A program made the position numbers and the translations under genes. A DNA stretch of 64,000 nucleotides, taken from a virus. The stretch lies in IMG/VR virus record IMGVR_UViG_3300045988_135886. One strand, 5' to 3'. The first letter of the stretch is position 1. Every line of letters starts with the position of its first letter. Under the pieces are notes generated by a model. It did not search any database. It saw nothing but the letters and a program-made list of their open reading frames with translations, and was not told the origin of the DNA. Below are positions 3,538-26,521 of the stretch, one piece after another.

Positions 3538-6096
3538 ATGGCTGATTATATAATAAACGTTGGTGTACAAGTCGAGGACAGTGCGCTAAATGCATTAGAA
3601 ACACGAATTAATTCTTTAAAAGAGAAGCACATTAAACTAGGTGTGGAATTAAGTAATACTAAACAGCTAACTAAAAATGCACAGACAGCGGTAAAGACAA
3701 TAAGTAAAGCAACTGCCAAAGCCGCTAAAAATACTCCTGTTATTAAGGGATCTAATCTTGTAGAACAGATGGTAAATCCTGAAGAAGCTTTAAAATCTAT
3801 GGCTAATACAGTCAGTAAGCTGTCAAGGTATCAGGACAAGCTTGATCTAGGAGAAGTAAAACTTTCCGTAAATCAAGGTATTATGGGGGAGCTTGATGGA
3901 CTTTTAGCCAAACTTAATGAAATAAAATCTACAGCTAAAAACATGGGCTCTATTAAGCTTACTGTTGGAGACAATATAAAAACTAAAGACGGTAAAATAG
4001 TTGTTGGAGAAACTACTAGTTCTTCTAATACTGCAAGATCTACAGGCATTACTCTTAGACAAGCTCAAGCTGAAATTAAGAGAAATATGAAGACAATAGG
4101 AACCCTACAGGAACAGTATATAAGTGGGATTATTGATGAAAGTACTTATAAACAGTCAAAGAGAACTATAGGACATAGAAATTCTCAGCTGGCTAGACAG
4201 ATACAAAATCAAGGTACTGCTTCTGATTGGGTTACTTCTGCATCTGACATTCGAGGAGCACAGGCTAAGAATCAAGAAGCATACAAAGCAATGACTCAGA
4301 GTGCTTCAGAATATGACAAAGTTATCACTAATTTGGGTGAGAAACAGAAGACATTCAATAAAATGGCTCAAGTATATAATCCTAACAATGGTAAACCATT
4401 AGATAAAACTCTAGGACAAGGTTATGATGAAAGATTAAAATCTTTCAATGATACATATGAGCAATTAAAAAAATCTCGTGATAGTCTTGCGACTCTTACT
4501 GGAGACGAAAGAGACACTGAGCAAGTACGTTTTGCTGCTCTTCGCTCTGAAGCCAATCGTCAAGCTAGATATCTCGGTAATACTAATCAGTTTTTCTCAC
4601 GTACTCCAAATAGATATAGCCGTTCAGAATATATTGGTACAGATTTAGATCCAGCATCTGATAAGGTCCGTCTTAAGATGGAACAAATGTCAGCAGATCT
4701 GGCAAAAGGAAGCAAATACACAACAGAGTTTAATGCAGCACAAGGTAAAATGTATGCTACTATTGATAGAGGGTCTGGTGTATTTGAAAAATATCAATTA
4801 GCATATAAAAATGGTCCAGGTAATATTGACCAGTCTCTTACTAAAGTTACACAAAGTGTAAAACCTTTATCTAGTTATCTTTCTGAAATGGGACAAAAGT
4901 TCCGTAGTCTTAGCCAGTATCTTGTAAGCAATTTTGGATTCCAAGCATTAACAACGGGTGTCAGATCCGGTGTCGAATCAATAAAAGAATTAGATTCAGC
5001 GATGACTGAACTTAAGAAAACATCAGATGGTACAAAACAAGAATATAGAGACTTTACTACTCAGGCCAGAACTGATGCCAAAGACATTGGTAGTACAACA
5101 ACTCAGATTACTAGTAGTGCTGCTGATTTTTCTCGTCTTGGATATAGCTTAAATGAATCTCAGACTTTAGCTAAAAATACAGGTATTTTAAAAAATGTAT
5201 CAGAATTCGGATCTATAGATGATGCAACAACCGCTATGATTTCCATGATGAAAGCATACGATGTAAAAGTTGATGATTCTATGGATCTCGTTGATAAAAT
5301 GAATCTTATTGGTAACAACTATGCAATTTCTACAGACGGAATTGCCACTGCTTTACAAGATTCAGGTTCAGCATTAGTAGCAGCGGGAAATGACTTCGAT
5401 AAATCAGTTGCTCTCGTTACGGCAGCAAATAGTGTAGTGCAGGATCCATCGAAGGTAGGTGCTGGTCTTAGAACAATTGCATTACGACTTAGAGGCACTT
5501 CTGCTGAAGAATTATCTTCTATGGGTGAAGATACAGAAGGTCTTGTAGAGACCACTTCTAAACTTAATTCAAATATTAAATCTCTTACTGCCGTTAACGG
5601 TAAGGCTGGAGTTTCTATTCTTGATATGAATGGAAACTATAGAGATACTTATGATATTTTAAAAGATATCTCTCAGGTTTGGGATGATATTGGTAAACAA
5701 GATTTGGCAGATGGTCAGAATAGACAGGCTGCTCTGCTTGAAATGATGGCAGGAAAAAATAGAAGTAATATTCTTGCATCCATATTGCAGCATCCTGAAT
5801 TGCTTACAGATGTTTATAATGATTCCGCAAATAATTATCAAAATTCAGCTCAGAACGAGCTTAATACATACCTTGATTCTATCGAAGCAAAAACAACTAA
5901 AATTAAAGAATCTTGGTCACAGTTATGGCAATCAGAAGGTAGTACTAATACTTTTAAAGGATTGCTTGATATTGGCAACGGCGCTGTAGGACTCTTAAAT
6001 GGTTTGGGACTTAATAAATCCTTAGCCGGAGTCGGCGGTATGCTTGTTAGCCATGCTATGAACTGGGGTGGGACAAATTATCAGTTGGTCCTTTAG
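3538..6096 (+). CDS. tape measure protein, N-terminal piece (TP901-type core region)
   Basis: GAGGTGA RBS. Coiled-coil N-terminus. TP901-family TMP core pattern (NYAISTDGIATALQDSGSALVAAGNDFDKSVALVTAANSVVQDPSKVGAGLRTIALRLRG). Ends abruptly after a Gly/hydrophobic segment. Confidence 0.8.
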   Translation: MADYIINVGVQVEDSALNALETRINSLKEKHIKLGVELSNTKQLTKNAQTAVKTISKATAKAAKNTPVIKGSNLVEQMVNPEEALKSMANTVSKLSRYQDKLDLGEVKLSVNQGIMGELDGLLAKLNEIKSTAKNMGSIKLTVGDNIKTKDGKIVVGETTSSSNTARSTGITLRQAQAEIKRNMKTIGTLQEQYISGIIDESTYKQSKRTIGHRNSQLARQIQNQGTASDWVTSASDIRGAQAKNQEAYKAMTQSASEYDKVITNLGEKQKTFNKMAQVYNPNNGKPLDKTLGQGYDERLKSFNDTYEQLKKSRDSLATLTGDERDTEQVRFAALRSEANRQARYLGNTNQFFSRTPNRYSRSEYIGTDLDPASDKVRLKMEQMSADLAKGSKYTTEFNAAQGKMYATIDRGSGVFEKYQLAYKNGPGNIDQSLTKVTQSVKPLSSYLSEMGQKFRSLSQYLVSNFGFQALTTGVRSGVESIKELDSAMTELKKTSDGTKQEYRDFTTQARTDAKDIGSTTTQITSSAADFSRLGYSLNESQTLAKNTGILKNVSEFGSIDDATTAMISMMKAYDVKVDDSMDLVDKMNLIGNNYAISTDGIATALQDSGSALVAAGNDFDKSVALVTAANSVVQDPSKVGAGLRTIALRLRGTSAEELSSMGEDTEGLVETTSKLNSNIKSLTAVNGKAGVSILDMNGNYRDTYDILKDISQVWDDIGKQDLADGQNRQAALLEMMAGKNRSNILASILQHPELLTDVYNDSANNYQNSAQNELNTYLDSIEAKTTKIKESWSQLWQSEGSTNTFKGLLDIGNGAVGLLNGLGLNKSLAGVGGMLVSHAMNWGGTNYQLVL

Positions 6097-6475
6097 AAAA
6101 CGCCCCATGTAACCTGGTGGTGACACGGAACGATCTCATATGAGAAAGGGGTTACTAAGCAAACAACCGAAACTGTCTTTATTCGAAGGAATAGAGAAAT
6201 GCTTTTAATTTAGCATTCAGGGTGAACCGAAGTATATACTACTCCCCTATTACAGCAATGTAATAGGTATAGTAACAACGTATATATATGGGTGATCTGC
6301 AGCGAAGCTTCTCTCTGAGAAGAACGTTCATCGACTATAATGGGAACTTGGTCTCTGGATCAAGAAGGAATAGTCAGGACTGTTAGGCAGCTTGCGCCGA
6401 ATAAATTAAAGGGTAAATACATCTTACTCTCGTAAGCAATCTTACCTTATGTGCAAAGGTGATGTAAGCACAAAT
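6070..6475 (+). ncRNA. group I intron-like ribozyme core
   Basis: GUUCAUCGACUAUAAUGGG (6326-6344) resembles the R element. CAAGAAGGAAUAGUCAGG (6361-6378) resembles the S element. GACUA/UAGUC can form P7. A 7-bp P8 hairpin lies at 6347-6364. Candidate P3 is CCCAU (6104-6108) with AUGGG (6340-6344). GAUCUGCAGC (6294-6303) is Q-like. A 9-bp hairpin capped by a GCAA tetraloop lies at 6246-6267. Candidate P1 pairs GGGGU (6065-6069) with GUCCU (6088-6092). The boundaries are uncertain. Confidence 0.55.
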
Positions 6476-6476
6476 C

Positions 6477-6505
6477 TTTACTTTATTATTCTTCTATGCT
6501 ATATT
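6477..6505 (+). promoter_or_regulatory. candidate sigma-A-type promoter for the 6526 ORF
   Basis: TTTACT, 17-nt spacer, then TGcTATATT (extended -10). Confidence 0.3.
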
Positions 6506-6525
6506 TCACATAGGAGGGTAAAACT

Positions 6526-6990
6526 ATGATAATAAATAATTCTATCAGAACTTATGCACCAATTGCTCCGCCATATTTTGACGGATGCTTATTTATGAAT
6601 GCAACTTATGAAATGCCAGAGGAACTGGCCAATTTGTTTACTAAAGGATTAGAATCCTTAAGCAAACATTTATATGAAAAAAATATTGATCCTACTAAAT
6701 TATTTCCTGTAAGTTTAATATTTACAAAAGATGGCAGTTTTTCTGTCACCGAAAATGAAGCAACCACTTATGGAAGATGTATGTCTTTTTTAGTATACTC
6801 CATGGAACGAATAATTACATCTAACAATCAACACATGCAGCTATTCGCATTTATTGAAGAATTAGTGCATTACTATTTTCAAGAAACAAATGAAACAAAA
6901 GTCAAACTAACTACTTTTTCTGTTGTCCAGAAAATATTCCCAGAAATAACTTTCGAGGAGGTAACATCATGGGGAGTAAATTGGAGTTAA
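6526..6990 (+). CDS. hypothetical protein (island ORF)
   Basis: Strong AGGAGGG RBS 8 nt upstream. 154 aa. No recognised nuclease or other motif. Confidence 0.7.
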   Translation: MIINNSIRTYAPIAPPYFDGCLFMNATYEMPEELANLFTKGLESLSKHLYEKNIDPTKLFPVSLIFTKDGSFSVTENEATTYGRCMSFLVYSMERIITSNNQHMQLFAFIEELVHYYFQETNETKVKLTTFSVVQKIFPEITFEEVTSWGVNWS

Positions 6991-7098
6991 TGTTTATTAG
7001 CAAAGAGAAAAGTCAAATAATTAATTCTCCTATTATAAAAGGTATTACTTGTGATACTTATAAAACAAACTTACAAAATTCATCAAAAGAGCAAAAGA

Positions 7099-7209
7099 CT
7101 ATTCAGTCTCCTGCTCTTTCTTAATATAATACGTACAATCTTCGTTTTCAAAGTACGGACATTCCTCTTCCCTGCACTCTTTATAAAGAGGACATTCTAA
7201 TATTTCCAT
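7099..7209 (-). CDS. small Cys-rich hypothetical protein (36 aa)
   Basis: Not in the ORF track. GGAGG RBS 10 nt upstream. Sequence: MEILECPLYKECREEECPYFENEDCTYYIKKEQETE. Confidence 0.35.
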   Translation of the reverse strand: MEILECPLYKECREEECPYFENEDCTYYIKKEQETE

Positions 7210-7254
7210 AATCTTTAAACCTCCATAATATAGTTTTGAAAGTAGGTGTATTTA

Positions 7255-7425
7255 ATGGATAAAAACATTTTTGATAGATTAGTTCCTAAATATCTTCAAA
7301 AGCTAAGCTCAGACGAAATTACAGATTTACTTATAGAAATCAGTGATATTGGCAGAACAAAATTTATCAGTAATTACCCAAAAGAAATTGCTGATCAACT
7401 CCCAGGATATGACTTATACGAATAA
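7255..7425 (+). CDS. small hypothetical protein (56 aa)
   Basis: Not in the ORF track. AGGTG RBS. Divergent from the 7209(-) ORF. Sequence starts MDKNIFDRLVPKYLQKLSSDEITDLLIEISDIGRTKF. Confidence 0.4.
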   Translation: MDKNIFDRLVPKYLQKLSSDEITDLLIEISDIGRTKFISNYPKEIADQLPGYDLYE

Positions 7426-7500
7426 TCTTTTTCGGTTGTATTCAATGCAGTCGAGATTGTTAACTTTCCTATAGTATTGTGCAGAGTGTTAGTGTACAGA

Positions 7501-7528
7501 AAGGAGAACTGTGGTGGCAGTTCTCCTT
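7501..7528. terminator. bidirectional terminator hairpin
   Basis: aaggagaactg-tggtgg-cagttctcctt: an 11-bp perfect stem between convergent genes, with AT-rich flanks. Confidence 0.65.
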
Positions 7529-7604
7529 CTATTAAATAAAAATTTTAAAAAGAGAAATACATATGACGAAGTAATTAAATGATAAAGTAGAACATTATTA
7601 GCGA

Positions 7605-7790
7605 TTAGTCAACTTTTTTATTCTTGTATTGTCTTTTCATCATTCCGGTGATAAATTTGACTTTCTCATCAGATAATTCTGGATGATTGCAAATTTGATC
7701 AACAGTATGATTTTTCGAGTTGTAATATAGACCAGCTAATATTACAACAAGTAAAAGACTACTAAGAGATATTATTATTCCAGTATTCAT
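7605..7790 (-). CDS. small single-pass membrane protein
   Basis: ATG at 7790 preceded by a GGGGGTGA RBS. TM segment IIISLSSLLLVVILAGLYY. The track's TTG start at 7913 has no RBS. Confidence 0.6.
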   Translation of the reverse strand: MNTGIIISLSSLLLVVILAGLYYNSKNHTVDQICNHPELSDEKVKFITGMMKRQYKNKKVD

Positions 7791-8037
7791 ATTCTTCTTT
7801 TCACCCCCTTCCCTTATAAATTTCTTTATTGGGGAAGTGTATTGCCCAGAACGGGCAGATTCTTCGTCCACATCAACAATACAGAATGTATGCCAACACT
7901 TCTGCATGATCAAAAGAAATGATCAAGTATATTATCGTGCAGCGAGTTATAATGCAGCACCTATAACCATAATATACCTAGTAGTATAATAACAATATTC
8001 GACAACTTTGTATATACAGAACATTAGTTTATTATAA

Positions 8038-8538
8038 TCAAAACTTAGCTCCACACTTACAGCACTGATAAGTCTTACCAAGATCACCTGCTCCAAAAAG
8101 ACCAAACAGACCTATCTTCATTGCTTTTCTTGTTCCAGTGATTTTCTTAAGATTTGTGCTGCCGCAGATTGGACACTTAGGCCCAGTAGAGAATTTCTGA
8201 GCATTCTGTTTGGCATACCACTGGTCTGTGTTTTTGTTTCGTTGCTCTACTCCTTCAGGAGATTCCCAGTATTTTCTTTCTGCAGTGGCTGCTTTGGTAA
8301 CATCAGAGTCTAGCTTGCCATAGAAATATTTCTCTCGGAGCATTTCATCAGATTCTTCTATGCTAGGATAATCACCATTATGTGTTTTTTTATACTCTTC
8401 TGTTACTTCTGCATAAGCTTTAGAAAAGTTTATTGTTGTACCTATAAGATTACCCTTTAAACAACTTGAACATAAATCACCTATAGTATTTGAACAACTC
8501 ACTGCTCCACATTTATTACAAAATAAAAGTTCACTCAT
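8038..8538 (-). CDS. double zinc-ribbon protein
   Basis: ATG at 8538 after an AAGGTGA RBS. N-terminal CNKCG...CSSC and C-terminal CPICG...CCKCG ribbons. Confidence 0.7.
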   Translation of the reverse strand: MSELLFCNKCGAVSCSNTIGDLCSSCLKGNLIGTTINFSKAYAEVTEEYKKTHNGDYPSIEESDEMLREKYFYGKLDSDVTKAATAERKYWESPEGVEQRNKNTDQWYAKQNAQKFSTGPKCPICGSTNLKKITGTRKAMKIGLFGLFGAGDLGKTYQCCKCGAKF

Positions 8539-8566
8539 AATTTTCACCTTTTATATAGTTTTTAAG

Positions 8567-11500
8567 ATGAACTATATTATATCACAGTATCTGGTTTTTG
8601 AAAAGAACGATCAAGGTGGAATTTTACCAGAAACACGTTGGAGTAGAAGAACAAGATTGTACAACGAAGGTCGTGCGGAGGCTTTATCAAATTGGAAAGA
8701 ATATGATAATGACACAAGAGCATTGACCCAGCTTAATAATGCACTTCAGAATAATGGTCAAACTATTACCGATAACGCAGAAAGACAGAAAATTGCTGAT
8801 AAAACTCTAAAAAATGCCAGTGAAAGAGCGAAAGAATATGGTAACCAAATTGTAGCGAATACGAAAACTCTTAGTGACTTTAAGAAAGAGAATGAAGTAG
8901 AGGACCCCAATAAGCAAGTAAAACCTAAATTTACTGATGGATTAAAAAGTTTTGCTTCTTCTGCACTTTCATCAATTGGTAATGCTGTTGTTTCTGCCGG
9001 TACAGCAATGATTGCACAGCAATTAATCTCATGGGGACTTCAAGGTATTGATGCTATTGTTCATTGGAATGATAACATTATTGCTAAAGGAAAAGAAGCA
9101 AAAGAAACAATCCTTGAGCAAAATCAAACTTATAAAGATCAGAAGTCTCAATTAGAAGAGCTCCAAGAACAATATACAAAATACGCTTCAGGTGTCAAAA
9201 TCTCTGGTAATATTATTAAAAATGCCACTCTTTCGGATGAAGATTTTCAAGCGTTTCTCGATACAAGTAATCAAATTGCTAACTTAGCACCTTCTATGAT
9301 TGATGGTTGGGACTCTGAAGGCAATGCTATTCTTAAATTTGGAACGGATACCAAAGAAGCTAATCAGCAAATTTCAGATTATATTCAACTCCAACGTGAC
9401 GTAACACATCTATCCATTAGAGATAATCTACAGGATGAGTATAAGGGTGTAGTTAAAGATGCAGAGAAAACTGGAAAAGAAATTTCTAATAAAAAAGATC
9501 AAAAAAAGGAAGCAGATACTATTACATCTGGATGGACCGCATTAAAAAATGCAACCGAAACAGATGGACCTATTACTTTTACTACAACTGCACCACAAAA
9601 AGAAGTTGAAGAATTACTAGATAAATATAAAGTTACATCGTTAATAACTAGCGATGTAAATGGTGATACTTATACAGTAGATATGTCAGAGCTTTCTGCG
9701 GCAGATAAAAATGCTCTTAAAACGTCTCTTGAATCTAAAGAAGCATTAGCTCAAGGTAATGCCAATTTAATTGAATCTGAAAAACTTGCTCAAGAAGCTG
9801 TACAAGCATCTAAATGGAAAGATTTACTTCCAAGTTTACAAGCATATGTTGAATCATCAAATATGTTTGATAACATGGATTCAGATGTTGCAGAAAGAGC
9901 TAAAAATGGCATTAACACAATGCTATCCAATATTGATATTTCTAAAATGACAGATCAAATAAAAGATGCTGGTGGTATTGATGATTGGATTGATAAGACT
10001 TTAATCGCTCCTATGACATCGGGTTCGAAAGATGTTCAAAAAGCTTGGGCTGACCTTTTTTCATTGGAAGACTCTTATGGTTCCGAAGATTCAAAGATGA
10101 CAGTTGGAGAATGGTCCAAACAGCGAAATGATTATCTTAAAACAATTTCTGAAGGTACTGGTGAAAGTTTTGATAGTCTTGCTAAAAAATTAGGATATAA
10201 AACTGATGAAGGTTGGACTGTTAGAGAACAGATTAACAATGCAGCTGCTCGTCTTTATGGAAAAAACTATGATAGAGATCAAAGAGCGGAAATAGGTAGT
10301 TATTTAAATGGATTGACCAAAGATAATTATGAAATAGCTATTGATTTACTTATTAATGGTGATAAAGCATTTTCTTCTTTAGATGAATTTAAAGAAAAAG
10401 TTAATGAAGCAATAAGCAATGCTAAGAATCAGGCAGATGAAGCTGCTGTTTCTTTAGATTCAATGGAAACGAAAGTATCAACTGCTAAGTCTACTCTTTC
10501 TTCTATGGGAACTATTCTTACAGAGACTACTTCTGCAGGTGGAATTTCTAAAGACAATGTTAAGATCCTTTCTACTGCTTTCAAAGATGTGAAAGATCCT
10601 CGTGGCATTGAGCAAAATGTTAATGATTTATTCACCACTACTTCTGATGGTATCAAACTAAACATAGATGCTTTGAAAACCTTTACGGAATATCAGGCTG
10701 AAGCCACTGATGGAGATTTCGAAAAGGGTATTAAGTTACAGACTAAAGCTATTGCCGAGCAAGCAGAAGAAACAGATAAAGCTTGGAAAGCTATTGCTAA
10801 AGCCGATGACAAGGAAGCAGCTAGAGCAACTTATGACGCAGAAAAAGATAAATTAAAAGATGCTAGAGACGAATATTTATCCTATATGCAATCTCAGTCT
10901 GAATGGCAAGCGACTAAGAAACAGCAACAGGAACTTCTCTCCTATTATTCTCAGTGGCAACGTGCTCAGAGTACGGAGAATGCCGGAGATAAATATAATA
11001 ACATTGTCGCAGGACTAAAGAATGCTAAAGATGCATATGATAAAGGTCTTGTAGGTACAGATGATTTTAAATCATTTGCTGCTCTTATTTCTCCTACAGG
11101 TTCAGATGATAGAGCAAACTTTGCAGAGAATTATGGTAAAGCTGTAAGATACCTCACAGAAGATAAGACAGGTGTTAATAATTTCTTAGCTGATCTTAAA
11201 TCTAAGGGTATGGCATCTTATGATGATGCAAGTAAAAGATGGTCATTTGACATAGATGATATGAGTAAAGCCGCTCGATCAATGGGAATCAGCAAAGAAT
11301 TCATGAGTGCTAACTTCGGTCGTCTTCGTGATTATGGCATTGATAATAACTTTATATCATCTATAGAGGAAGGTATAGACAGAACTCAAGAACTTACTTC
11401 TGCCCTTTCAGATGAACAGAAACGACTCGAAGAACTGAAAAATACAGATAGTACTAACACTACTGCTATTTCTGCTTCTGAGGATAAAGTTAATAAATAT

Positions 11501-14500
11501 AAACAGGATTTAAAAGAAACCTATGATAACATGGAGTCTTATTCAGAAGATGCTGCTCAAAATGCTGTTGATAATTTCAATTCATCTGCCATGGGAGCGC
11601 AAGCCTACGAAGAAGAGATAAAAAGAGTTCAAAAAAATGATCAATTGACAAATGATCAGCGAAATGCAGCTATTAATCAATTAAAAGCTAAACAAGAAGA
11701 GCTAGCTGCTTCTGCCGGTACAACTGTTGAAGCTCTTTTAGGAACAGATGTATCTTCATTAATGGATGGTATCATAACAGATTCTGCTTCTGTTACTACA
11801 GCTCTTGATGGTATCAATAAAGCATATGAAGAACAGAACACAGATGTTACTTCTTTAGTAGACACTCTTGGAAAATATACTTCTGAACAGTTAGAAGGTA
11901 TAGATTTCAATGATGGTAAATGGGACACTGAATTAGGTGATGCAGAAAAAGCTGTTGAATCTTTATGCGAAAAACTCGGTTTAACTAAAGACCAAGCTCG
12001 TTCTGTTATTGAGGCTTTAAAAGAAGCTGGTAAATTAAAAGATTCTGAGAAAAGTAGTGATTCCTCTAAAGAAACTACTAAGGGGTCTTGGGAGAAACCA
12101 CAGACTGCTGAACAGATGGGATTCGGTGATGATCCTGATAGGGCTGCTGAATATACACATTCATTGGAAGCTCTTACTGCTGCCCATAAAGAAAACGATG
12201 CCGCTACTGAAAAGTCATTTGAAACCCTTTCTAAATATAACCGTACACAATTAGAGGGCATCAAATTAAATGATGGTGCTTATAATGTTGAGGGTATGGA
12301 ACAGGCTGAAGATGCCATACAACAGTTAGCAGATAAGACTCAGTTGTCTAAAGATCAGATCCTTACTGCTCTTGAAGGTCTTGGTGTTTTGAAAGTTAAT
12401 GCTCCTACTATGGATGCGACAAAAGGTTTGGAAGATTTAGTTTCTGAGGCTAAAGATGCACAGGACGAATTGTCTGACCTTACTGGTAAAACATACACAT
12501 TTGATTTTGATACTACTGATTTAGATACTGCTCATAAACAGGTAGCTGACCTGCAGGAAGAAGTAAATAAATATAGAGATCGTGATGGTAAATACCATCC
12601 AGAGATTACTGGCGGAGAACAGGTGCAATCAATGTACAAAGCCGCTATTGCTCAAGAACAGAATGCTGAATATAGTTCTTCTGCTATTGGACAGTCTAGC
12701 TTATCATCAGATGTCGTACAAGCTGCTCAAGATTTCATGCAAGCCAAGAATGAAATGGATCAACAAACACAACTCTATCAGAATGGTATGGACAACACCC
12801 TTGATCAGGCTACTCAAGATGCCAATGCAGCTTTTGAAACCTTACAACAGGCTCAGACTGATTCAGGTATCAAATTAGTAGATACAGACAATATTCAAAC
12901 TGCCGAAGATCAGTTATTACAATTATCCAATGAAGATATTGGTGATAAAATCAAAATAGATGTTGATACAACTTCTGTTGATGACGCTCTTGCCGATGTA
13001 CAAGCACTTGCAGCAGACGGAAAAATGGGAAGTATTGACTTAGATTTTAATGTTAATACGATGTCTATTGATGATATAGATTCTAAGATAGAAGAATTGA
13101 CAAATCAACAGAAAGTATTAACTATTCTAGGAGATGTTGAGGGAGCAGATAAAGTACAAGCTCTTATTGATGCCTTGCAGCAAGTACATGACAAACAAGT
13201 TGAAGTTGTTGCACAGACCCAAGGTGCAGATTTAGTAGACCAACTTCAGTCACGAATAGCCGAATTGCAAGATAAGAATGTATCTATTGATGCAATTGTT
13301 CAAGATGATAAAGTTCAAAGTCTTATAAGTGAAATTGCTGCTCTCCCACCAGAAGTCCAAATAGCTATTGGTGTAAATGAAAATAATGTAGGAAATGCAG
13401 AAGCTATCAAAGCTCAGATTGAATCCGATCCTGCAAGTATTACTGTAAATTATGTTAAAGGTGAAGAACCTGAAAAAGCGGATGACATTGAAGGAAAAGC
13501 TAATTTTACTCTTGGAGAACATCCTACAAAAGCTCCAGACATTTCAGGTACAGCTAATTATAGTCTTGGTAGTTATCCTAAAACTGCTCCAACTATTTTT
13601 GGTACTGCTGTTTATACTAAAAAGATTCAAGCTTCTGGCACAATGACATCAGTTGCTCACGCTTCTGGAACAGCTTATAACGTTCTTAATATGAGACCTC
13701 TCTCTTCTGCTCATGCAAAAGGTGATGTAGCACTTAAACATGATGAGCAAGCACTTATTAATGAGGTATGCATCAACGGTCATTCTGAATCCATAGTGCG
13801 TGATGGTGTATGGTCGCTTATTCCTGGTGGTGCTCATATTGAGAATTTGAAAAAAGGTGACATCATCTTTTCAGCTACTCAAACAGAGGATTTATTAAAA
13901 CATGGTGCTACACATGGTCATGCTAGAGCATATGCACAAGGCACTGCTTCCAGTGTAACCCTTGCTCCTGCCTATGCAGACGGTACATCAGAATTAGATG
14001 ATACAATTAAAAAAGTAAGTACTCAAGCTAAAGACTGGATAGAAACTGCTCTTGATCGTTTAGAGAGAATCGTTGAAAAGTATCAAGATATCGCTGAAAG
14101 CGATTATAGTAATTATAAGTCTTCTGAGAAGAATTATGATAAAGCACTTAAAAATCTGAATAAACAATTACAGACACAAAAAGATTCCAGAGCAAAATAC
14201 GTAGCTAAAGCAAATGAAGTTGCTTCTGCTGTTGGTTTATCTGACGAACTGAAAAAGAAAGTCCAGAATGGTACAATCAATATTGAAAGTTTATCCGAAG
14301 ATGATAAGAAACGTGTTGACGCATATCAGGAATGGTATGAAAAAATCTTGGATTGTGACAAAGCGATTCGTGAACTCACTAAGTCACAGAAAGATTTAGC
14401 TAAAGCAAAGGTCGAACGTGTTATTGAAGCTTATGACACCGTCATAGGTAAACGTGAGAATAAAGCTGACTATTACAAAGCTAAACAGGAATTGAGAATC

Positions 14501-17179
14501 TCACAAGGGTATAATCAGAAACCTGGTTCTAAATATGAAAAATACATGAAAAAGGAACTCTATTATACCAATGAACAGAAACGTCTTACTGATAAAGAAA
14601 TAAAAGAATATAAAGGTAGGATGAAAGAATATCTTAAGGTAAATGGACATAAAACTGTCGATCCAGAATACCAAAAGATGAAGAAACAGCTTTATAGTCT
14701 CCAGACAGAGGCTGTTAAGTTAGAAAATGAAGCTGCTGAATTAGTTCAGGCTTTACAAGATAATCGTGAACAGATAAAACAATGGGCTGTTGACCGCTGG
14801 GATCGTGCAGGTTCCAAGCAGGATGCAGTAATTGATTACGCAAAAGCAAATGATAATCCTGAGTATCAGATTAACGAAAAGATTTATCAGGAGCGCATTA
14901 AATCTAATGCGAGACAGATCAATGCACTTCAAAAGCTTCGTGCAGAAAAAGCCGAATACTATGATACTCATTTTTCTTCTATGAATAATGAAGAAGCCCA
15001 GAAATATCTTAATTCTATAGCACAGATTGACGAACAAATTTTAAAAATCGGCAGTGATATAGAAAATCTGAAAAATGAAATCATGGAACTTCGCTGGAAA
15101 CCATTTGATGATGCACAAGATAAACTATCAAATGTTATCACTGAATATCAGACTATGCAAAAACTTCTCGGTGACGCTGAAAGTTTTTACAATGATGATG
15201 GTTCATTTACTACAAATGGATTAACTAACATTTTATTAACTCAAGAATCTATAGATGCGACAAAACAGAAGATTGCTAACTATAGGGAAGGTCTTAATAA
15301 GCTTGAAGAACAATATAAAAATGGTTGTTACAGCTTAGACGAATACAATGAGAAAAGCAAACAACTTCTTGATGGTATTCAACAAGAATCTACTGCTCTT
15401 TCTGAACTGAAACAGAATATGCTTGATATGTATGAGACTCAAATTAAGAAAGAGAATGATTTACTTCAGGAAAATATTGATAAGCGTAAAGACGCTCTTT
15501 CTGCTAAAGAGAAATATTACGATTATGACAAAACTTTAAAAAAGAAGTCTAAAGATATTAATACTCTTAAATCCCAGATAGCTGCCCTTGAAGGAACCAG
15601 TAATGCTGCCGCCAAAGCTCGTCTTGAGAAATTACGTGCGGAACTTGCAGATGCCGAAGATGATATGGCAGATACCATGCATCAACACGAAGTCGATATG
15701 AAAAATACCGGCTATGAGAATTTCTCTAATGAAGCGAATAAAGCTCTTGATAATACACTTGATGCAGTAAAGAAAAATTCTTCGTTTCAGGAAGCTATTA
15801 TTAATGGAATGCTTACCAATGTAACCACTAATTATGATAACACATATAAACATTTACATACTGTGATGGATCAGTATGGTGTTAAGGTGTCTGGCACATT
15901 TGATACTATGATAGGTAAGTCTGCTGATTTCAATACAAGTTTAATTCAACAGATAAAAGCATTAGAAACCATTTCTAATATGAAAGTTACTCTTCCATAC
16001 GGAACAAGCAATGGACAAGGTGGTTCTACAACTGGTAATAATACATATACCGGTGCTGAGAATGGTATTCACAATACATTTAATAGCAATAAAGACTCCA
16101 CTGGTGCTGGAAATGAAACTCCAGGTACAGTTAATAACAAGAAATACAGTTTAAAACTAAACGCTACTGATATTTATTTAACTTATGACCATATTAAACA
16201 GCAGCTTAAAGCAACATGGTCACCAAGCAAACCGGAACACTCTGATATTGAGTGGAAAAGTTCTGATGAATCTATTGCAAAAGTTTCTTCTGATGGTACA
16301 GTTCGTGGTGTGTCTTCAGGTCTTAATAAGAACGGTTTAATGGCGCGTGATGAGTCTAAAACAAGAAAATGTATCATTACTGCTATTGGCGGTGGTGGTC
16401 TTGCTAAAGCTACTTGTACCGTTCATGTAATGCCAAATGCTCATTACGAAGCAATTAAATCCTATGCAGCTAATGCAGGGATTGATGTTACTTCTGGAGA
16501 TAACTTAAGAGCCGCCATGCAATATGCATATCAAAATGGGGCTAATCATAGCTACCAGTCTGATGTCGCAGTTGAAGGATTCAAAAAGGCATATCTGAAG
16601 GATTGGACAAGCTCTCTACCTAATCGTCCAGATGGAGCAACTGATATTCCATCTGGTGTTAGTCAGTTAGTAGGTTACTTCAATTCCAAAGGTAAAAAAG
16701 TCGGACCAAAAGAAATGCAACAGCTTGCAGATATTCTTGGAATTAGTACTCCAGGTGTTAAAAAATATGATTCATGGGGTTCTGCTTTAAAAAATCAGAT
16801 ACTTCAAAAGTATAAATCATATGGTTTTGCTACTGGTGGAATAATAAATAAGCTAATACCTGCTGATATGAGTACTCTTTTAGGTAAAGCTATTATTAGT
16901 AATGGAGATCAGGGATTCATTGGTGCAAAAGTTGGCGAATCAGTAATGACCGAGGAATTTACTCGTCTGCTCAAACCTTCTATTGCTGCAATGAATGACT
17001 TTACCAATATGTTTAACCCGGTTACTCCTACTGCCACAAATAATGATTATACTATCAACAACGAAGTGAACATTAATGTAGCAAATATGAGTAATGATTT
17101 AGACATCCAAGATGTCGCAAACAAAGTTTCTACAATTATTAATAAAAATATGACTAGAGACTGGAGAAAGCTTAGATGA
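8567..17179 (+). CDS. tape measure protein, C-terminal piece (giant coiled-coil protein with an Ig-like domain)
   Basis: 2870-aa ORF. Gly/hydrophobic segment near the N-terminus (SSALSSIGNAVVSAGTAMIAQQLISWG). Kilobases of E/K/Q-rich coiled coil. Repeated A(H/Y)AxGT motifs (AHASGT, AHAKGD, AYAQGT, AYADGT, GFATGG) typical of TMP C-termini. Big_2-like Ig domain around 16140-16430. No SD before the ATG at 8567. Confidence 0.7.
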   Translation: MNYIISQYLVFEKNDQGGILPETRWSRRTRLYNEGRAEALSNWKEYDNDTRALTQLNNALQNNGQTITDNAERQKIADKTLKNASERAKEYGNQIVANTKTLSDFKKENEVEDPNKQVKPKFTDGLKSFASSALSSIGNAVVSAGTAMIAQQLISWGLQGIDAIVHWNDNIIAKGKEAKETILEQNQTYKDQKSQLEELQEQYTKYASGVKISGNIIKNATLSDEDFQAFLDTSNQIANLAPSMIDGWDSEGNAILKFGTDTKEANQQISDYIQLQRDVTHLSIRDNLQDEYKGVVKDAEKTGKEISNKKDQKKEADTITSGWTALKNATETDGPITFTTTAPQKEVEELLDKYKVTSLITSDVNGDTYTVDMSELSAADKNALKTSLESKEALAQGNANLIESEKLAQEAVQASKWKDLLPSLQAYVESSNMFDNMDSDVAERAKNGINTMLSNIDISKMTDQIKDAGGIDDWIDKTLIAPMTSGSKDVQKAWADLFSLEDSYGSEDSKMTVGEWSKQRNDYLKTISEGTGESFDSLAKKLGYKTDEGWTVREQINNAAARLYGKNYDRDQRAEIGSYLNGLTKDNYEIAIDLLINGDKAFSSLDEFKEKVNEAISNAKNQADEAAVSLDSMETKVSTAKSTLSSMGTILTETTSAGGISKDNVKILSTAFKDVKDPRGIEQNVNDLFTTTSDGIKLNIDALKTFTEYQAEATDGDFEKGIKLQTKAIAEQAEETDKAWKAIAKADDKEAARATYDAEKDKLKDARDEYLSYMQSQSEWQATKKQQQELLSYYSQWQRAQSTENAGDKYNNIVAGLKNAKDAYDKGLVGTDDFKSFAALISPTGSDDRANFAENYGKAVRYLTEDKTGVNNFLADLKSKGMASYDDASKRWSFDIDDMSKAARSMGISKEFMSANFGRLRDYGIDNNFISSIEEGIDRTQELTSALSDEQKRLEELKNTDSTNTTAISASEDKVNKYKQDLKETYDNMESYSEDAAQNAVDNFNSSAMGAQAYEEEIKRVQKNDQLTNDQRNAAINQLKAKQEELAASAGTTVEALLGTDVSSLMDGIITDSASVTTALDGINKAYEEQNTDVTSLVDTLGKYTSEQLEGIDFNDGKWDTELGDAEKAVESLCEKLGLTKDQARSVIEALKEAGKLKDSEKSSDSSKETTKGSWEKPQTAEQMGFGDDPDRAAEYTHSLEALTAAHKENDAATEKSFETLSKYNRTQLEGIKLNDGAYNVEGMEQAEDAIQQLADKTQLSKDQILTALEGLGVLKVNAPTMDATKGLEDLVSEAKDAQDELSDLTGKTYTFDFDTTDLDTAHKQVADLQEEVNKYRDRDGKYHPEITGGEQVQSMYKAAIAQEQNAEYSSSAIGQSSLSSDVVQAAQDFMQAKNEMDQQTQLYQNGMDNTLDQATQDANAAFETLQQAQTDSGIKLVDTDNIQTAEDQLLQLSNEDIGDKIKIDVDTTSVDDALADVQALAADGKMGSIDLDFNVNTMSIDDIDSKIEELTNQQKVLTILGDVEGADKVQALIDALQQVHDKQVEVVAQTQGADLVDQLQSRIAELQDKNVSIDAIVQDDKVQSLISEIAALPPEVQIAIGVNENNVGNAEAIKAQIESDPASITVNYVKGEEPEKADDIEGKANFTLGEHPTKAPDISGTANYSLGSYPKTAPTIFGTAVYTKKIQASGTMTSVAHASGTAYNVLNMRPLSSAHAKGDVALKHDEQALINEVCINGHSESIVRDGVWSLIPGGAHIENLKKGDIIFSATQTEDLLKHGATHGHARAYAQGTASSVTLAPAYADGTSELDDTIKKVSTQAKDWIETALDRLERIVEKYQDIAESDYSNYKSSEKNYDKALKNLNKQLQTQKDSRAKYVAKANEVASAVGLSDELKKKVQNGTINIESLSEDDKKRVDAYQEWYEKILDCDKAIRELTKSQKDLAKAKVERVIEAYDTVIGKRENKADYYKAKQELRISQGYNQKPGSKYEKYMKKELYYTNEQKRLTDKEIKEYKGRMKEYLKVNGHKTVDPEYQKMKKQLYSLQTEAVKLENEAAELVQALQDNREQIKQWAVDRWDRAGSKQDAVIDYAKANDNPEYQINEKIYQERIKSNARQINALQKLRAEKAEYYDTHFSSMNNEEAQKYLNSIAQIDEQILKIGSDIENLKNEIMELRWKPFDDAQDKLSNVITEYQTMQKLLGDAESFYNDDGSFTTNGLTNILLTQESIDATKQKIANYREGLNKLEEQYKNGCYSLDEYNEKSKQLLDGIQQESTALSELKQNMLDMYETQIKKENDLLQENIDKRKDALSAKEKYYDYDKTLKKKSKDINTLKSQIAALEGTSNAAAKARLEKLRAELADAEDDMADTMHQHEVDMKNTGYENFSNEANKALDNTLDAVKKNSSFQEAIINGMLTNVTTNYDNTYKHLHTVMDQYGVKVSGTFDTMIGKSADFNTSLIQQIKALETISNMKVTLPYGTSNGQGGSTTGNNTYTGAENGIHNTFNSNKDSTGAGNETPGTVNNKKYSLKLNATDIYLTYDHIKQQLKATWSPSKPEHSDIEWKSSDESIAKVSSDGTVRGVSSGLNKNGLMARDESKTRKCIITAIGGGGLAKATCTVHVMPNAHYEAIKSYAANAGIDVTSGDNLRAAMQYAYQNGANHSYQSDVAVEGFKKAYLKDWTSSLPNRPDGATDIPSGVSQLVGYFNSKGKKVGPKEMQQLADILGISTPGVKKYDSWGSALKNQILQKYKSYGFATGGIINKLIPADMSTLLGKAIISNGDQGFIGAKVGESVMTEEFTRLLKPSIAAMNDFTNMFNPVTPTATNNDYTINNEVNINVANMSNDLDIQDVANKVSTIINKNMTRDWRKLR
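8576..8604 (-). promoter_or_regulatory. sigma-A-type promoter driving the 8538(-) gene
   Basis: On the minus strand: TTTTCA, 17-nt spacer, then TGaTATAAT (perfect extended -10). It lies inside the first codons of the 8567 ORF. Confidence 0.55.
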
Positions 17180-17241: not shown

Positions 17242-18186
17242 ATGTTACAATTTGAATTTGATGGACATAATTCTAGTGAATACGGGATTATAATGACTGG
17301 AATCACAGACAATGATAATCTTGAAAGCAGATCTTTACAGTTAGGAGAAAAGAATAGATATAGAGCAAGAGAAAATCATTTCGGAGCAGTGTACGGTGAT
17401 AATTATAGCTTTACACTTAGCATCATGAAAAATCCTTGTCACAATACAAATGTGACACCTGAATTATCTAGTGGAATCATCACATATCCAGAAAAATGTA
17501 CTCCTATATTGAAAAATGGTATTATTACTTTCCCATTGGAGTACATTCCAGATGTTAAATTAGGTGTTATACAGATGAATGATACGGATTACCTTTCTTC
17601 AAGCAATATCCGTATTATTAATGGCTGGTTAACTTCTCCACAAACACCAAAATTATTTAAGATAATTGGTGGTGACTACTTCTACGAAGATATAGAGTTC
17701 TTTGCTACATTCACAGAAATTACTACTGATCATGTTGTGTTCCCATATGAAATGAATTTTACAGTCACTTGCGACAGTCCATATGGTTACACTCCTGAGA
17801 TTACGCATAATATCACCTCTTCTTCTACTCTTCCAAAAACTTATATAATTAACAACACTTCTGACTGTCATGAAGATTACATCTATCCTCTTATTAAAAT
17901 TTCCCCTAAAAGCCATGGCACTATTACAATCCAAAATGTAACAGACAATAACGGAACAATGAAAATAAATGCTTTAAAAGATGATGACTTTTATATTGAT
18001 TGCCAGCATTTAAAAATATATGACATTACTAATTCAATTATAAGTTTTGAAGATTTGGGTGTAAAAGATATAGATAATATATACTGGCTTAGATTGGCTT
18101 ACGGTGAAAATGAATTAAGATTCACTGGTGATGCTACATTTGAGCTTATTTATAGAGAACCAAGAAAGGTGGGTGCGTTTGGGTGA
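17242..18186 (+). CDS. distal tail protein (Dit)
   Basis: AGAGGTGA RBS. Lies directly after the TMP. N-terminus (LQFEFDGHNSSEYGIIMTGI) is typical of siphovirus Dit proteins. Confidence 0.65.
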   Translation: MLQFEFDGHNSSEYGIIMTGITDNDNLESRSLQLGEKNRYRARENHFGAVYGDNYSFTLSIMKNPCHNTNVTPELSSGIITYPEKCTPILKNGIITFPLEYIPDVKLGVIQMNDTDYLSSSNIRIINGWLTSPQTPKLFKIIGGDYFYEDIEFFATFTEITTDHVVFPYEMNFTVTCDSPYGYTPEITHNITSSSTLPKTYIINNTSDCHEDYIYPLIKISPKSHGTITIQNVTDNNGTMKINALKDDDFYIDCQHLKIYDITNSIISFEDLGVKDIDNIYWLRLAYGENELRFTGDATFELIYREPRKVGAFG

Positions 18187-21100
18187 AAATAAATCATAAG
18201 TATGATATTTATGGACGTACTGAGCCTTCTATTATTTATTTAGCTAAACCTGGCAAAAGATTATATTGTGCGCTAGGAGGCATTGATACATCTACCGTTT
18301 CATTGTCATTAAAAACTAATAATACAGCTGAATTAACATTTACTGTTGATAAATACATAAACAATACTGTTACTGACGGGTATGAAGAACTTGATGAGCT
18401 AATGGAGCTATACTGTGATGGCATTTGGTTCAAAATAGTAGATCCGCCAACTATTAATAACGATGGTTTGCGTGAAACTAAAGAGATTACTGCTGAGTCT
18501 TATGAAATCATGCTTACTCAATATAAACTGAAAAACTTTAAAATTAATATGGGCGAAGAAGATTCCTATGAAATGATGTATCAGGCAACTCATGATACAA
18601 ATAAGTTTTATCAGATTAAGTTTTATGATTCAGAAAATGAAGATCTAAGTTTTTTACATTTAGTATTAAAACATGCAGATGTTCCTGGTTGGCATATAGG
18701 TTATGTGGATAATATTACTCCTGATGACGACGGAAAATTACTCCCTAATAATATATGTAACTTTGAAGTAGACGATCAAAATGTATATGCTTTCTTAACA
18801 CAAGAGGCCGCACAAGCCTATAAATGTGTGTTTGAGTTTGATACTGTAAATATGACCATAAATGTTTATAGACCTGACAGCTTAGGTAAAGATACAAATG
18901 TAGTTTTGGGTTTTAGAAACATTCAGAATAGTATAACTATTTCCAGAGATGAAAATTTAGTTACACAATTTTATGTTGAAGGCTTAGATGATTATAATAT
19001 TGATGCAGTCAATTTTGGTGATTCTGTAATTACTGATCTTTCCTATTTTGTATGTGAGCCTTACATGGACACTTCACTACAAGAAAAATATAATGCATGG
19101 CAAAGCTACCGGGAGTCCCGCAGAGAAGAGTTTATTAATTTATCCAAAGAATATAATAAAAATCTGGAAGTTCTTACTGAATTAATGAATAGAGTCCCAA
19201 TTGATACTGCTCAAACAAATTGGTTCGGGAAAAAAGTTGAAGATTTAAAAGATGCATATAATGCTAACATGGCAATCATTAAGGGTTTAGAAGCTCTATA
19301 TGTTGACGATGAAAAGAATTTTGATTTAGAAGCTTTAAAAAAGTCACATGATTGGCCTTTATATGAATCAATTATGAACTACACTCTTCCATCTATTGTG
19401 GCTGCATTACAAGCTCAAGACGAAACCGTAGAAGGATTCGGTAAAGGAAATATTATTTCATGTGTAAATCCGATTGTATTGGGCCAAGATTGGTATATGG
19501 TAAACCCTGGAACTTCTTCTTTTCAAACTATACAAATTGATGATGCTCCTGCTTATGGAATCACTCGTGGAGTTAAAGTAACTGGTACTAATGGAGGAAT
19601 TTATCAACACAATATTAGTATTGAACCATCTCAGAGATATACTCTTAGTTGTTTTGTAAAAGGATCCGGTACATTTTATCTTGGTTATAATAACACCGGA
19701 GAGGACAGAAAGAATATTTCTTATAACATCACATCTTCTTGGACCAGAGTTTATACTTCTTTCAATCTTTCTTCTCGTTTAATTGATGTAGCATTCACTG
19801 GAACTAATGATTTCACTATATGCGGTATGCAATTAGAGATGGGCGATTCACCTAGCCAGTTTGGGTATTTCACGCAATCTGAAAATATTATAAAAGCTTA
19901 TGAAACTGATTGGAAGTTATATGGAATCTCAGAATTAAAAGTAAAGATTTCAACTTACGATAGCTGTATTAAAGAATTAAAAAAGAGTGGTTATGCAGAT
20001 GGGTATAATCCTTTATCTGGATATGAAGAAGCATATTTTACTCAGATGCATCAAAAATATCTGGATTATCTGAATTTAAAAGATCAGGCTGAGACTGCTT
20101 TAAAAGAACGCCAGGCTGAATATGATAAGGCTAAGAAACCTGAAATTCAAGAGAAACGAAACCAGATTGCAAAAGATGTATTACTTGAAAATTTTGGTAA
20201 AGTACAGAACAAATACTCAGCTTTTACTGATAAAGAAACATATATTATTAAGAGTTTATATAGCCAATCCACTTATACAAATGAAAATATTATTATTACT
20301 ACTCTTGACAGTACTGCTGATGCCGTAGATAAGTCTAAAGTTCTTTATGACGATGCATTGGAAGAATTGTATGTGGAATCACATCCACAATATACATATA
20401 CTGATGATGTAGAGAATGTATACGCTCTTCCAGAATTTAAGGAGTACCATGAACAGCTTGCGGTAAATGATTTTGTACGTGTAGGAATCACTGATACTAA
20501 TTATATTAAACTAAGAGTAATTGAGATCACATATAATCCTTGTGATTTAGATGAATCTATGGAAGTTACTTTTAGCAATATGATTCAGTACAAAGCTAAA
20601 AGGAATGATTATAATACTCTTTTAAACGATGCTCTTAATACTTCCAACCGTAATGGTGGTCGTGTTAACTCAGTCAACAAATCTTCTACTTCTGATTATG
20701 TCATCACATCAGAAGCTATCAAACAAATCTTTTCAAATCCTCTATTCAATTCAATGTTAGGTGGAACTGTCACTGGAGGATCCGGATCTGGTGGAACCAT
20801 TACCGCTGATACAATTATTGCAGAACTCGTGAAAGCAAAAGAAGGTATATTTGATAAGCTTACTGTTGACACTGCTTTCATGAAATATCTCGATGTAAAA
20901 CTTATTTCCGCAGATAAGATCACAACTCGTATTCTCGAAGCGGAACAGGCAAATATTGAAAAGCTGTCAGCTAAGATTATAGAATCTAATCAGATTAATG
21001 CTGATATGATTAATGTAAAAAATCTTCTTGCAGGTCATGCAGGAGTTGGAGAATTACATACAATTCATCTTACTGTAGAAAATGCAGAAATTGATCAGGC

Positions 21101-24536: not shown

Positions 24537-24757
24537 TTAAAATTAATACAACAACTAATGTAAGTGCAAATATTTATGTTGGGGAAGCAGAAAATCAAAA
24601 GAATGTCGCTTATGCAAACGCATCTGTAAGTAAGAATGGTGACGTTTCTATTAACAAATCCATTCAAGATGGTGAAGCATTCAAAGCTAATAAAGAATCA
24701 GTTCTGAAAGACTTTACAGAGTTTGAAACATACGTATATGGAATTATTCCTGAATAA
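24533..24757 (+). CDS. hypothetical protein
   Basis: ATGA overlap with Tal. GGAGG RBS. Confidence 0.65.
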   Translation: MIKINTTTNVSANIYVGEAENQKNVAYANASVSKNGDVSINKSIQDGEAFKANKESVLKDFTEFETYVYGIIPE

Positions 24758-24810
24758 ATAAGAGGCCATGAGCAATCGTGGTCTTTTATTATGTAAAGAA
24801 GGTGAAATAT

Positions 24811-25185
24811 TTGACCAGTCGAGAATATGAACTTGAATTAAAGAAAATTAAAGCCCAAAATCGGCAGATTGAAATGAAACGAAATCTGAAGGCAGCAAAG
24901 GTTAAGAGATTCAATATTCCAAGAGTCTCTACAAGTAAATTGATACTTGTTGCTGTACTTTTACTTAATCTACAGATTATTCATTTTGTAGAAAAAGCAA
25001 TCATGACCTATGGAGATTTATCTGCTCTCTACGCTCTCATTGCTATTCCAGCAACACTCGTCCCTACAGTTTGGGCTTATTATGCAAAGGCTCGTGCAGA
25101 AAACTGCACAGGAGGCATTACTTATGATTCTGCAATGGAACAACTTAGACAGTCATCTTCAGAAAATGATGAAGCTGTCGGTTAG
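24811..25185 (+). CDS. two-TM membrane protein (holin-like)
   Basis: TTG at 24811 after an AAGGTG RBS; the track's start at 24778 lies inside a hairpin. Two hydrophobic helices follow a charged N-terminus. Confidence 0.45.
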   Translation: MTSREYELELKKIKAQNRQIEMKRNLKAAKVKRFNIPRVSTSKLILVAVLLLNLQIIHFVEKAIMTYGDLSALYALIAIPATLVPTVWAYYAKARAENCTGGITYDSAMEQLRQSSSENDEAVG

Positions 25186-25194
25186 GAGGAAATT

Positions 25195-25593: not shown

Positions 25594-25614
25594 TATAAAA
25601 GGAGTACAAGGATT

Positions 25615-26058: not shown

Positions 26059-26060
26059 TA

Positions 26061-26507: not shown

Positions 26508-26521
26508 GGAAGGAGGCAGTT

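Follow-up and report, generated by a model that had tools for sequence, protein, structure and literature searches.

The tape measure protein (TMP) gene in a 64,000-nt stretch of viral DNA, IMG/VR virus record IMGVR_UViG_3300045988_135886 (hereafter the window, to which all coordinates refer), had been set out in a preliminary description as two open reading frames (ORFs), and the present analysis makes it highly probable that both are exons of a single 3705-codon gene interrupted by a group I intron extending from 6070 to 8593. The ORF listing confirmed the positions and frames originally given: ORF1 occupies 3538-6096 (852 aa, frame 1) and ORF2 8567-17179 (2870 aa, frame 2). The preliminary description had offered a choice between a single ancestral TMP, broken by a mobile insertion and made whole again through RNA splicing, and two TMP-like polypeptides, and had given neither intron type nor splice sites. 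The first option is now supported with considerable confidence by a ribozyme core, an in-frame junction, co-variation in relatives and loss of the ORF2 ATG in several of them, while the second is disfavoured; the sequence additionally supports both the assignment to group I and the boundaries stated above. Compared loci are labelled L001, L002 and so on, most being relatives and L001 being the Pseudomonas phage PhiPA3 locus.

Residues 512-722 of ORF1 match Pfam PF10145 PhageMin_Tail (67 bits, E 2e-18), and since a further match to PHROG 4211 ('tail length tape measure protein') covers only profile positions 172-922 of 2625, ORF1 appears to represent the first third of a long TMP. Its end falls directly after a Gly-rich hydrophobic stretch, and the earlier view of ORF1 as a TP901-type TMP core ending at such a segment thus holds; in agreement with that type, the neighbouring genes are in place, with a YomU tube-type gene upstream in relatives and a Dit-like gene at 17242-18186. 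As had also been described, ORF2 resumes with a hydrophobic segment (~aa 120-165), which is followed by long helical regions, a Big_2 domain and a weak TMP PHROG match at aa 1693-1830. The A(Y/H)AxGT motifs that had been taken to close the TMP do exist, in the form A[YH]AxG[TD] at aa 1697, 1715, 1788 and 1802, but they lie in mid-protein with ~1070 aa still to follow. The reported lack of a Shine-Dalgarno sequence at the first ATG of ORF2 was likewise borne out: the sequence upstream of ATG 8567 is TATATAGTTTTTAAG, whereas neighbouring genes carry GAGGTGA or GGAGGG.

Sequence comparison supports exon ends at 6069 and 8594 rather than at the called ORF ends of 6096 and 8567. The last eight codons of ORF1 (6070-6096, residues GTNYQLVL) are on this basis intron read-through, and the first nine codons of ORF2 as called are intron sequence, its called N-terminus from the intron-encoded start being MNYIISQYLVFEK. 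Joining 6069 to 8594 is in frame, introduces no stop and gives a 3705-aa ORF reading ...VSHAMNWG/VFEKNDQGG... across the junction (marked by the slash); the predicted spliced junction reads ...AACTGGGGT/GTTTTTGAAAAG..., and the predicted junction tryptic peptide is SLAGVGGMLVSHAMNWGVFEK.

The splice sites are specified by two pairings with a common internal guide. All six of the final exon 1 bases pair with the guide to form P1, with a U.G wobble at the 5' splice site (U6069.G6102), and GUUUUU at 8594-8599, directly after G8593, pairs 6/6 with GAAAAC at 6096-6101 to form P10. By virtue of these pairings the guide 5'-GAAAACGCCCCA-3' is complementary to the ligated exons UGGGGU/GUUUUU, with two G.U pairs, and as predicted from these letters the arrangement is that of a classical P1/P10. 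Among the ~100 in-frame positions around the ORF2 start, 8593/8594 is the only site preceded by G at which P10 pairs 6/6; exactly one such in-frame site per locus was found in the window, L002, L003 and L004, against ~0.06 per locus expected by chance. Downstream of the 5' splice site, P1, P2, P4, P5, P6, P7 and P8 are all fully paired in the window and Q-, R- and S-like elements are present (Table 1); the first 400 nt after ORF1 are also richer in G+C (0.41 versus ~0.33) and fold better than shuffled sequences (z = -2.65).

A protein search conducted with the spliced junction region returned 1060 relatives at E <= 1e-5. No junction-spanning homolog was present among the 120 matches listed, nearly all of the ORF1-type matches being 850-aa proteins, and five matches that seemed to span the junction proved to be read-through of homologous introns. 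In BLAST alignments the identity of the relatives' ORF1 to the spliced query ends at aa 844, and the TMP is split at the identical point in all of them by a gap of 0.8-3.8 kb. The relatives are ~160-165 kb in size and possess the SPbeta-type structural neighbours YonD_N, YonB, YomW and YomU_Tube.

Comparison of window-type introns in 25 IMG/VR loci plus L002 and L004 demonstrated that the core (6070-~6482) is nearly invariant across the 25 IMG/VR relatives while exons and cargo diverge; exon 1 may differ strongly right up to the P1 bases. Homology of exon 2 in tblastn alignments starts at residue 1 in each of the 20 loci with sequence extending to that point, at identities as low as ~52%, and in these same loci the base before exon 2 is always G and exon 2 always begins GUUUU(U/C). 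Intron length in relatives ranges from 1711 to 3846 nt and includes all three mod-3 classes, so that the genomic frames of ORF1 and ORF2 differ between relatives, yet joining at the predicted sites keeps the reading frame in every case. Many relatives have ATA, TTT or ACA in place of ATG 8567, and in L004 the gene caller starts 130 codons downstream even though the open conserved frame extends further upstream.

At least seven lineages of intron are inserted at this TMP site among the relatives, and the pairings that define the splice sites change in concert with the exons (Table 1). Six different P1 exon/guide pairs were recorded in 9 lineages, all fully paired and with U.G at the site; P10 is represented by five different pairs, all 6/6, and co-varies in 7 lineages. 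One different intron at this TMP site, that of L008, is itself recognised by the Rfam group I model RF00028 (37.3 bits, E 5e-8). Seven introns (window, L003, L035, L037, L038, L040 and L041) have in common the P2-loop motif CUGGUGGURACACGGAACGA, and in these pairing is complete and compensatory changes are numerous across P2, the hairpin 5' of P4, P4, P6, P7 and P8, with P8 carrying such changes as do P2 and P6.

An uninterrupted counterpart is available in Brevibacillus phage Sundance, whose TMP (gp035) is one gene of 2528 aa collinear with exon 1 plus exon 2: exon 1 corresponds to Sundance residues ~697-1060 and exon 2 to residues 1087-1233, 2115-2307 and the C-terminus, exon 2 being collinear with the C-terminal 1470 aa.

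A number of observations weigh against the interpretation of the 2.5-kb insertion as an active group I intron. In the window RF00028 yielded only a match at 6169-6397 (15.2 bits, E 0.22 in a 501-nt search), which does align Q, R and S, with nothing at E <= 1 in a 4-kb search and nothing at the gathering threshold (50 bits). P3, which throughout the family pairs the 5-mer before GAA with the 5-mer after UAUAAU and is perfect in six members with five different sequences, is weak in the window lineage, where CAACC/GGGAA gives 2/5 pairs in the family register; an alternative P3 (GCUUUU 6201-6206 with GGGAAC 6342-6347) achieves 5/6 pairs, three of them G.U, and has the same position relative to P4 as P3 in the PhiPA3 intron, while competing with a local hairpin. 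A candidate tether of 6 bp between the P2 loop (6117-6122) and the 3' tail (8579-8584) is kept in four variants and not family-wide. Antisense transcription and the strong hairpin at 7085-7120 inside the intron could hinder production of full-length pre-mRNA. Finally, no intron-less allele was present among the 120 protein matches listed, and a degenerate junction pattern gave 0 matches in IMG/VR; in JGI metagenomes the same pattern gave 1 match, to an unrelated gene. With regard to the low score in the window, RF00028 also misses five clear family members (L035, L037, L038, L040 and L041): the standard Rfam group I model does not detect this intron family.

Those same weaknesses, the poor P3 and the low Rfam score of the window lineage, would be expected if the intron were a decayed, non-splicing relic or a mobile island and ORF1 and ORF2 were translated independently as separate proteins that both serve in tail assembly. 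The ATG available to ORF2 at 8567 in the window would be compatible with that explanation, as would the universality of the split among close relatives, no fused gene being present among the matches listed from 5.8 billion proteins searched. It is nonetheless judged improbable: this ATG is devoid of a Shine-Dalgarno sequence and is lost in many relatives, protein conservation begins at 8594 rather than 8567, the P1 extension dictates the final 8 residues of ORF1, the core is far more conserved than the flanking exons, and diverged lineages retain P1, P10 and the terminal G with co-variation, for which there would be no need without splicing. A still smaller likelihood attaches to trans-splicing, in which exon 1 plus ribozyme and the 3' tail plus exon 2 would form separate transcripts, on account of internal terminators and antisense transcription, and be joined via P10 and tail-core pairings. 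The 5' piece does include the entire catalytic core, a 16-bp hairpin and a promoter-like site facing left are present in the cargo, and the 6-bp pairing 6117-6122/8579-8584 was read by eye as kept in the L017, L020 and L003 variants; that tail pairing is, however, not conserved in L035, L038 and L040, the hairpin is terminator-like on the minus strand only, a rightward promoter for the 3' piece is represented by weak consensus matches only, and IStrons carrying 1-2 kb of 3' cargo are established to splice in cis (PMC4227781).

Frameshifts are common in tail genes, and the location of the two ORFs in different frames might on that account suggest that they are bridged during translation, by programmed frameshift, bypass or readthrough, instead of by RNA splicing. 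Such recoding was rejected as effectively refuted, its residual probability being negligible: between the ORFs lie 2.5 kb with five genes and many stops in every frame, and the frame offset varies among relatives through all three mod-3 classes. Other candidates were also discarded. A group II intron was rejected on finding no Rfam match, no reverse transcriptase and no GUGYG start. A second potential tether, an 8-nt match between 6457-6464 and 8544-8551, was dismissed because ~0.3 such matches are expected by chance and it overlaps the Shine-Dalgarno sequence of a minus-strand gene.

Splicing of the group I intron would accordingly be envisaged as follows. A late transcript would read through the intron, and the ribozyme core at its 5' end would fold; the guide 5'-GAAAAC/GCCCCA-3' would align the end of exon 1 (P1, with U.G at U6069) with the start of exon 2 (P10); guanosine would attack after U6069, whereupon the released exon 1 would attack after G8593; and the ligated mRNA would be translated into the 3705-aa TMP. 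Cargo would account for the 2.1 kb that separate the core from the 3' splice site, and would be looped out downstream of the core in an IStron-like manner. This model is founded on sequence, pairing, co-variation, reading frame and comparison, and it is from these that we infer actual splicing, its efficiency and the expression of the cargo genes.

The gap between the TMP ORFs contains five small ORFs on both strands (Table 1), and the 166-aa zinc-ribbon ORF among them is kept in all 14 window-type variants and, with the same conserved C-terminal motif as read from translations, also in the divergent L035, L038 and L041, and the L041 intron consists of little beyond the ribozyme and the antisense zinc-ribbon gene at its 3' end. 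The zinc-ribbon family has ~140 unnamed members with strictly conserved CxxC pairs, and in the loci examined occurred solely in antisense orientation, at the 3' end of introns in the TMP site. The ORF gave no match in Pfam, NCBIfam or PADLOC, and its AlphaFold model (pLDDT 81.8) no Foldseek match in the PDB. By contrast with the two constant minus-strand genes, the slot between them is variable. It is taken up in the window by the 100-aa ORF, in L004 and L015 by a 305-aa ORF, and in L012, L026 and L028 by a HEPN gene (Pfam pEK499_p136, E 2.6e-16; for example L028 1912-2463, minus strand), which could be a defence or toxin gene housed in the intron. No homing endonuclease of the LAGLIDADG, GIY-YIG, HNH, His-Cys box or PD-(D/E)xK types was detected in the five cargo ORFs with Pfam, NCBIfam, PHROGs and PADLOC, and Pfam and other family searches revealed no transposase in the cargo of the window intron; L003, a divergent lineage outside the 14, has a TnpB (OrfB_IS605) gene in its cargo that is not adjacent to the splice site.

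A minus-strand promoter had previously been placed in the first codons of ORF2. A promoter-like site is indeed present there, facing left across the 3' splice site, although it is a consensus match only and such sites as a class show no enrichment over shuffles. If functional, it would drive the minus-strand cargo genes, and a terminator-like hairpin on the minus strand (7120-7085) follows the 36-aa ORF; these two elements are proposed to belong to a single unit, transcribed leftward, that comprises most of the cargo. The constant association of the zinc-ribbon gene with the ribozyme invites the speculation that its product has a role in intron spread or maintenance. An extension of this idea, offered tentatively and with more doubt than confidence, is that the intron is a gene-carrying platform in an essential late gene, in which a ribozyme is coupled to an antisense zinc-ribbon partner acting as a new mobility or maintenance factor, and accessory or defence genes, among them HEPN and a putative membrane protein, are swapped through the variable slot, a safe harbour between this partner and the ribozyme.

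Table 1. Features of the TMP gene and its intron in the window, together with splice-site pairings of introns at the same TMP site in relatives
Feature	Coordinates	Strand	Details
TMP exon 1	3538..6069	+	844 codons; ends AAC UGG GGU (N-W-G) at a codon boundary; PF10145 and PHROG 4211
TMP exon 2	8594..17179	+	2861 codons plus stop; starts GUUUUU (P10 3' strand); encodes VFEKNDQGG
Putative group I intron	6070..8593	+	2524 nt; terminal G8593 (omega G); P1, P10 and terminal G; architecture recurs in relatives
Ribozyme core	6070..~6482	+	P1 to P9-like hairpins; alignment, helix check, Rfam
P1 5' strand	6064..6069	+	last six exon bases UGGGGU; 6/6 pairs with GCCCCA 6102-6107
Internal guide	6096..6107	+	P10 guide GAAAAC 6096-6101, then P1 guide GCCCCA 6102-6107
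P2	6109..6155	+	GUAACC/GGUUAC; encloses family motif CUGGUGGUGACACGGAACGA and small hairpin; compensatory changes in 7 family members
P4 and extended P5 domain	6218..6299	+	CAGG 6218-6221/UCUG 6296-6299; contains Q-like element AUCUGCAGC
P6 hairpin	6308..6322	+	CUUCU/AGAAG; compensatory changes in all family members
R, P7, P3', P8, S region	6326..6375	+	R-like GUUCAUCGACUAUAA, S-like AAGGAAUAGUC; P7 GACUAU 6333-6338/AUAGUC 6370-6375
P8	6347-6353/6358-6364	+	helix check; candidate P3' adjoining at 6342-6347
Cargo ORF, 154 aa	6526..6990	+	own Shine-Dalgarno GGAGGG; PHROG 33355 (function unknown); only some variants
Cargo ORF, 36 aa, Cys-rich	7102..7212	-	next to core; 14/14 window-type variants
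Cargo ORF, 56-59 aa	7246..7425	+	only some variants
Cargo ORF, 100-102 aa	7605..7913	-	one hydrophobic segment (read from translation); 10/14 variants
Cargo ORF, 166 aa, two zinc ribbons	8038..8538	-	antisense to TMP; start 55 nt from 3' splice site
Promoter-like site	8604-8576	-	TTTTCA-17-TG-TATAAT; facing left across 3' splice site; consensus match only
L003 intron			5' exon end GUGGGU; P1 guide GCCCAC; P10 guide GAAUAU; 3' exon start AUAUUC
L006 intron			5' exon end GCGGGU; P1 guide GCCCGC
L007 intron			5' exon end AUAGGU; P1 guide GCCUAU; P10 guide GAAUAU; 3' exon start AUAUUC
L008 intron			5' exon end GUGGGU; P1 guide GCCCAC
L035 intron			5' exon end GUGGGU; P1 guide GCCCAC; P10 guide GAAGGU; 3' exon start ACCUUC
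L038 intron			5' exon end ACGGGU; P1 guide GCCCGU; P10 guide UAUCAC; 3' exon start GUGAUA
L040 intron			5' exon end CUCGGGU; P1 guide GCCCGAG; P10 guide GAAUAU; 3' exon start AUAUUC
L041 intron			5' exon end CUCGGGU; P1 guide GCCCGAG; P10 guide GAAUAU; best 3' exon candidates 4-5/6

Introns in TMP genes are already known, and it is the cargo of this one that is unusual. Tourasse and Kolsto (2008) described group I introns (TMP-IVS1, -IVS2 and -IVS3) in the TMP genes of Bacillus cereus-group prophages, where different introns fit one site through P1/P10 and several are without a functional endonuclease (PMC2504315). These resemble the window intron in interrupting a large siphophage TMP gene, in the adaptation of P1 and P10 of different introns to the same site, in the lack of a complete homing endonuclease gene from several of them, and in being near-identical across different phages. 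They were, however, reported as IA1 or IA2, whereas the window core is without room for P7.1/P7.2, the hallmarks of IA2 (PMC4227781), and they do not share the 2.1 kb of multi-gene, mostly antisense cargo.

The IStrons, such as CdISt1 of C. difficile and BcISt1, are group I introns with large 3' cargo (PMC4227781), and share with the window intron a 5' ribozyme core, a 3' splice site far away from it and, beyond the P9 region, 1-2 kb of coding cargo, the corresponding layout in the window being core 6070-~6482, cargo 6483-~8540 and 3' splice site 8593. They too occur in Firmicutes and carry cargo other than a classical homing endonuclease. By way of contrast, IStron ribozymes are of type IA2 with P7.1/P7.2, for which the window offers only 8 nt (6339-6346) between P7 5' and P8, and their cargo is a sense IS200/IS605 or IS607 element, whereas no transposase is present in the window intron and the cargo conserved there is antisense. 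Judged by these features of sequence, the window element is neither an IStron nor a classical endonuclease-bearing mobile intron.

A further resemblance was traced to other phages. The 73 nt at 6266-6338, corresponding to the P5'/P4'/P6/J6-7/P7 core segment, are 85% identical to an intron of Pseudomonas phage PhiPA3, and this segment matches, over 50-73 nt, unannotated intergenic DNA in PhiPA3, HPP-Temi, Av-05, H101, AgentSmith, Miami and Enterocloster phage CB457P1. A tRNA or tmRNA was rejected as its identity because ARAGORN found none. The PhiPA3 site is a group I intron according to RF00028 (71.7 bits, E 5e-18, above the Rfam threshold); it lies at L001 2868-3173, corresponding to ~74.5-74.9 kb of HQ630627, between gp085 and gp084, and is unannotated in the record. 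The two flanking genes may be exons of one gene. Unlike the window intron, that of PhiPA3 belongs to a jumbo myovirus with a Gram-negative host and lies in another host gene; hairpins separate its P7 from P3', its P3 is clear, and it reaches the Rfam threshold.

Single-gene TMPs are familiar from SPbeta-like phages, YomI of B. subtilis SPbeta being one. TMPs of the Sundance type present the PhageMin_Tail core, hydrophobic segment, long coiled coil and C-terminal region in the same order as the window, and the neighbours YonD, YonB, YomW and YomU are common to SPbeta-like phages and the relatives of the window; the single-gene proteins differ in being uninterrupted, ~1200 aa shorter and only weakly similar outside the core (E 3e-6 to 5e-4).

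Relative to these precedents the novel elements are the antisense cargo module, the zinc-ribbon gene conserved as its partner, the slot for accessory genes, and the fact that standard models miss the family. In every public relative seen, in hundreds of metagenomic contigs, gene calling wrongly divides the TMP gene into two ORFs, and recognition of the intron would restore the correct 3705-aa TMP, which would be among the longest implied. With the textbook estimate of ~0.15 nm of tail per TMP residue, the fused protein predicts a tail of ~556 nm, and tails about half a micrometre long would be expected in an abundant group of ~160-kb SPbeta-like phages. The antisense genes, the conserved zinc-ribbon partner and the variable slot with a HEPN gene in some relatives suggest, moreover, that accessory genes can settle within essential phage genes by using self-splicing introns as neutral landing sites.

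A search with the P2-loop motif located related introns in Oscillospiraceae, Acutalibacteraceae and Eubacteriales metagenome-assembled genomes (MAGs), and some of the relatives' contigs derive from human gut or faecal metagenomes and gut-type Clostridia MAGs; a search for the host with exon 1 gave no match in GTDB representative genomes. L035, an Oscillospiraceae MAG contig, has a sub-threshold glycine riboswitch match at 5383-5566 (62.5 bits against a gathering score of 110, E 7e-11), and both this match and host-like genes lie ~1 kb downstream of a short 'exon 2'; this copy may be a truncated prophage remnant.

Downstream of the TMP gene in the window, the Dit-like gene is followed by giant structural ORFs at 18183-24536 (2117 aa) and 27242-34465 (2407 aa). 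They are separated by a 2-kb stretch (24533-27229) of small, ordinary genes on the plus strand, with no sign of a further intron. In relatives, upstream of what corresponds to the left end of the window, the YonB-like gene is also split: L003 has two RF00028 introns in it (1807-2162 and 2274-2658, with 40.8 and 79.9 bits respectively), and a GIY-YIG ORF lies between two YonB-like halves in L002 (1011-3330) and L004 (1102-3326), which points to several introns in the late genes of this phage group. A sub-threshold match to HEARO, the IscB-associated omega RNA, at 5501-5735 of L007 (38 bits, E 3e-4) closely precedes the gene for a 415-aa RRXRR/HNH protein, and the pair suggests a putative IscB-type element inside the L007 tail module.

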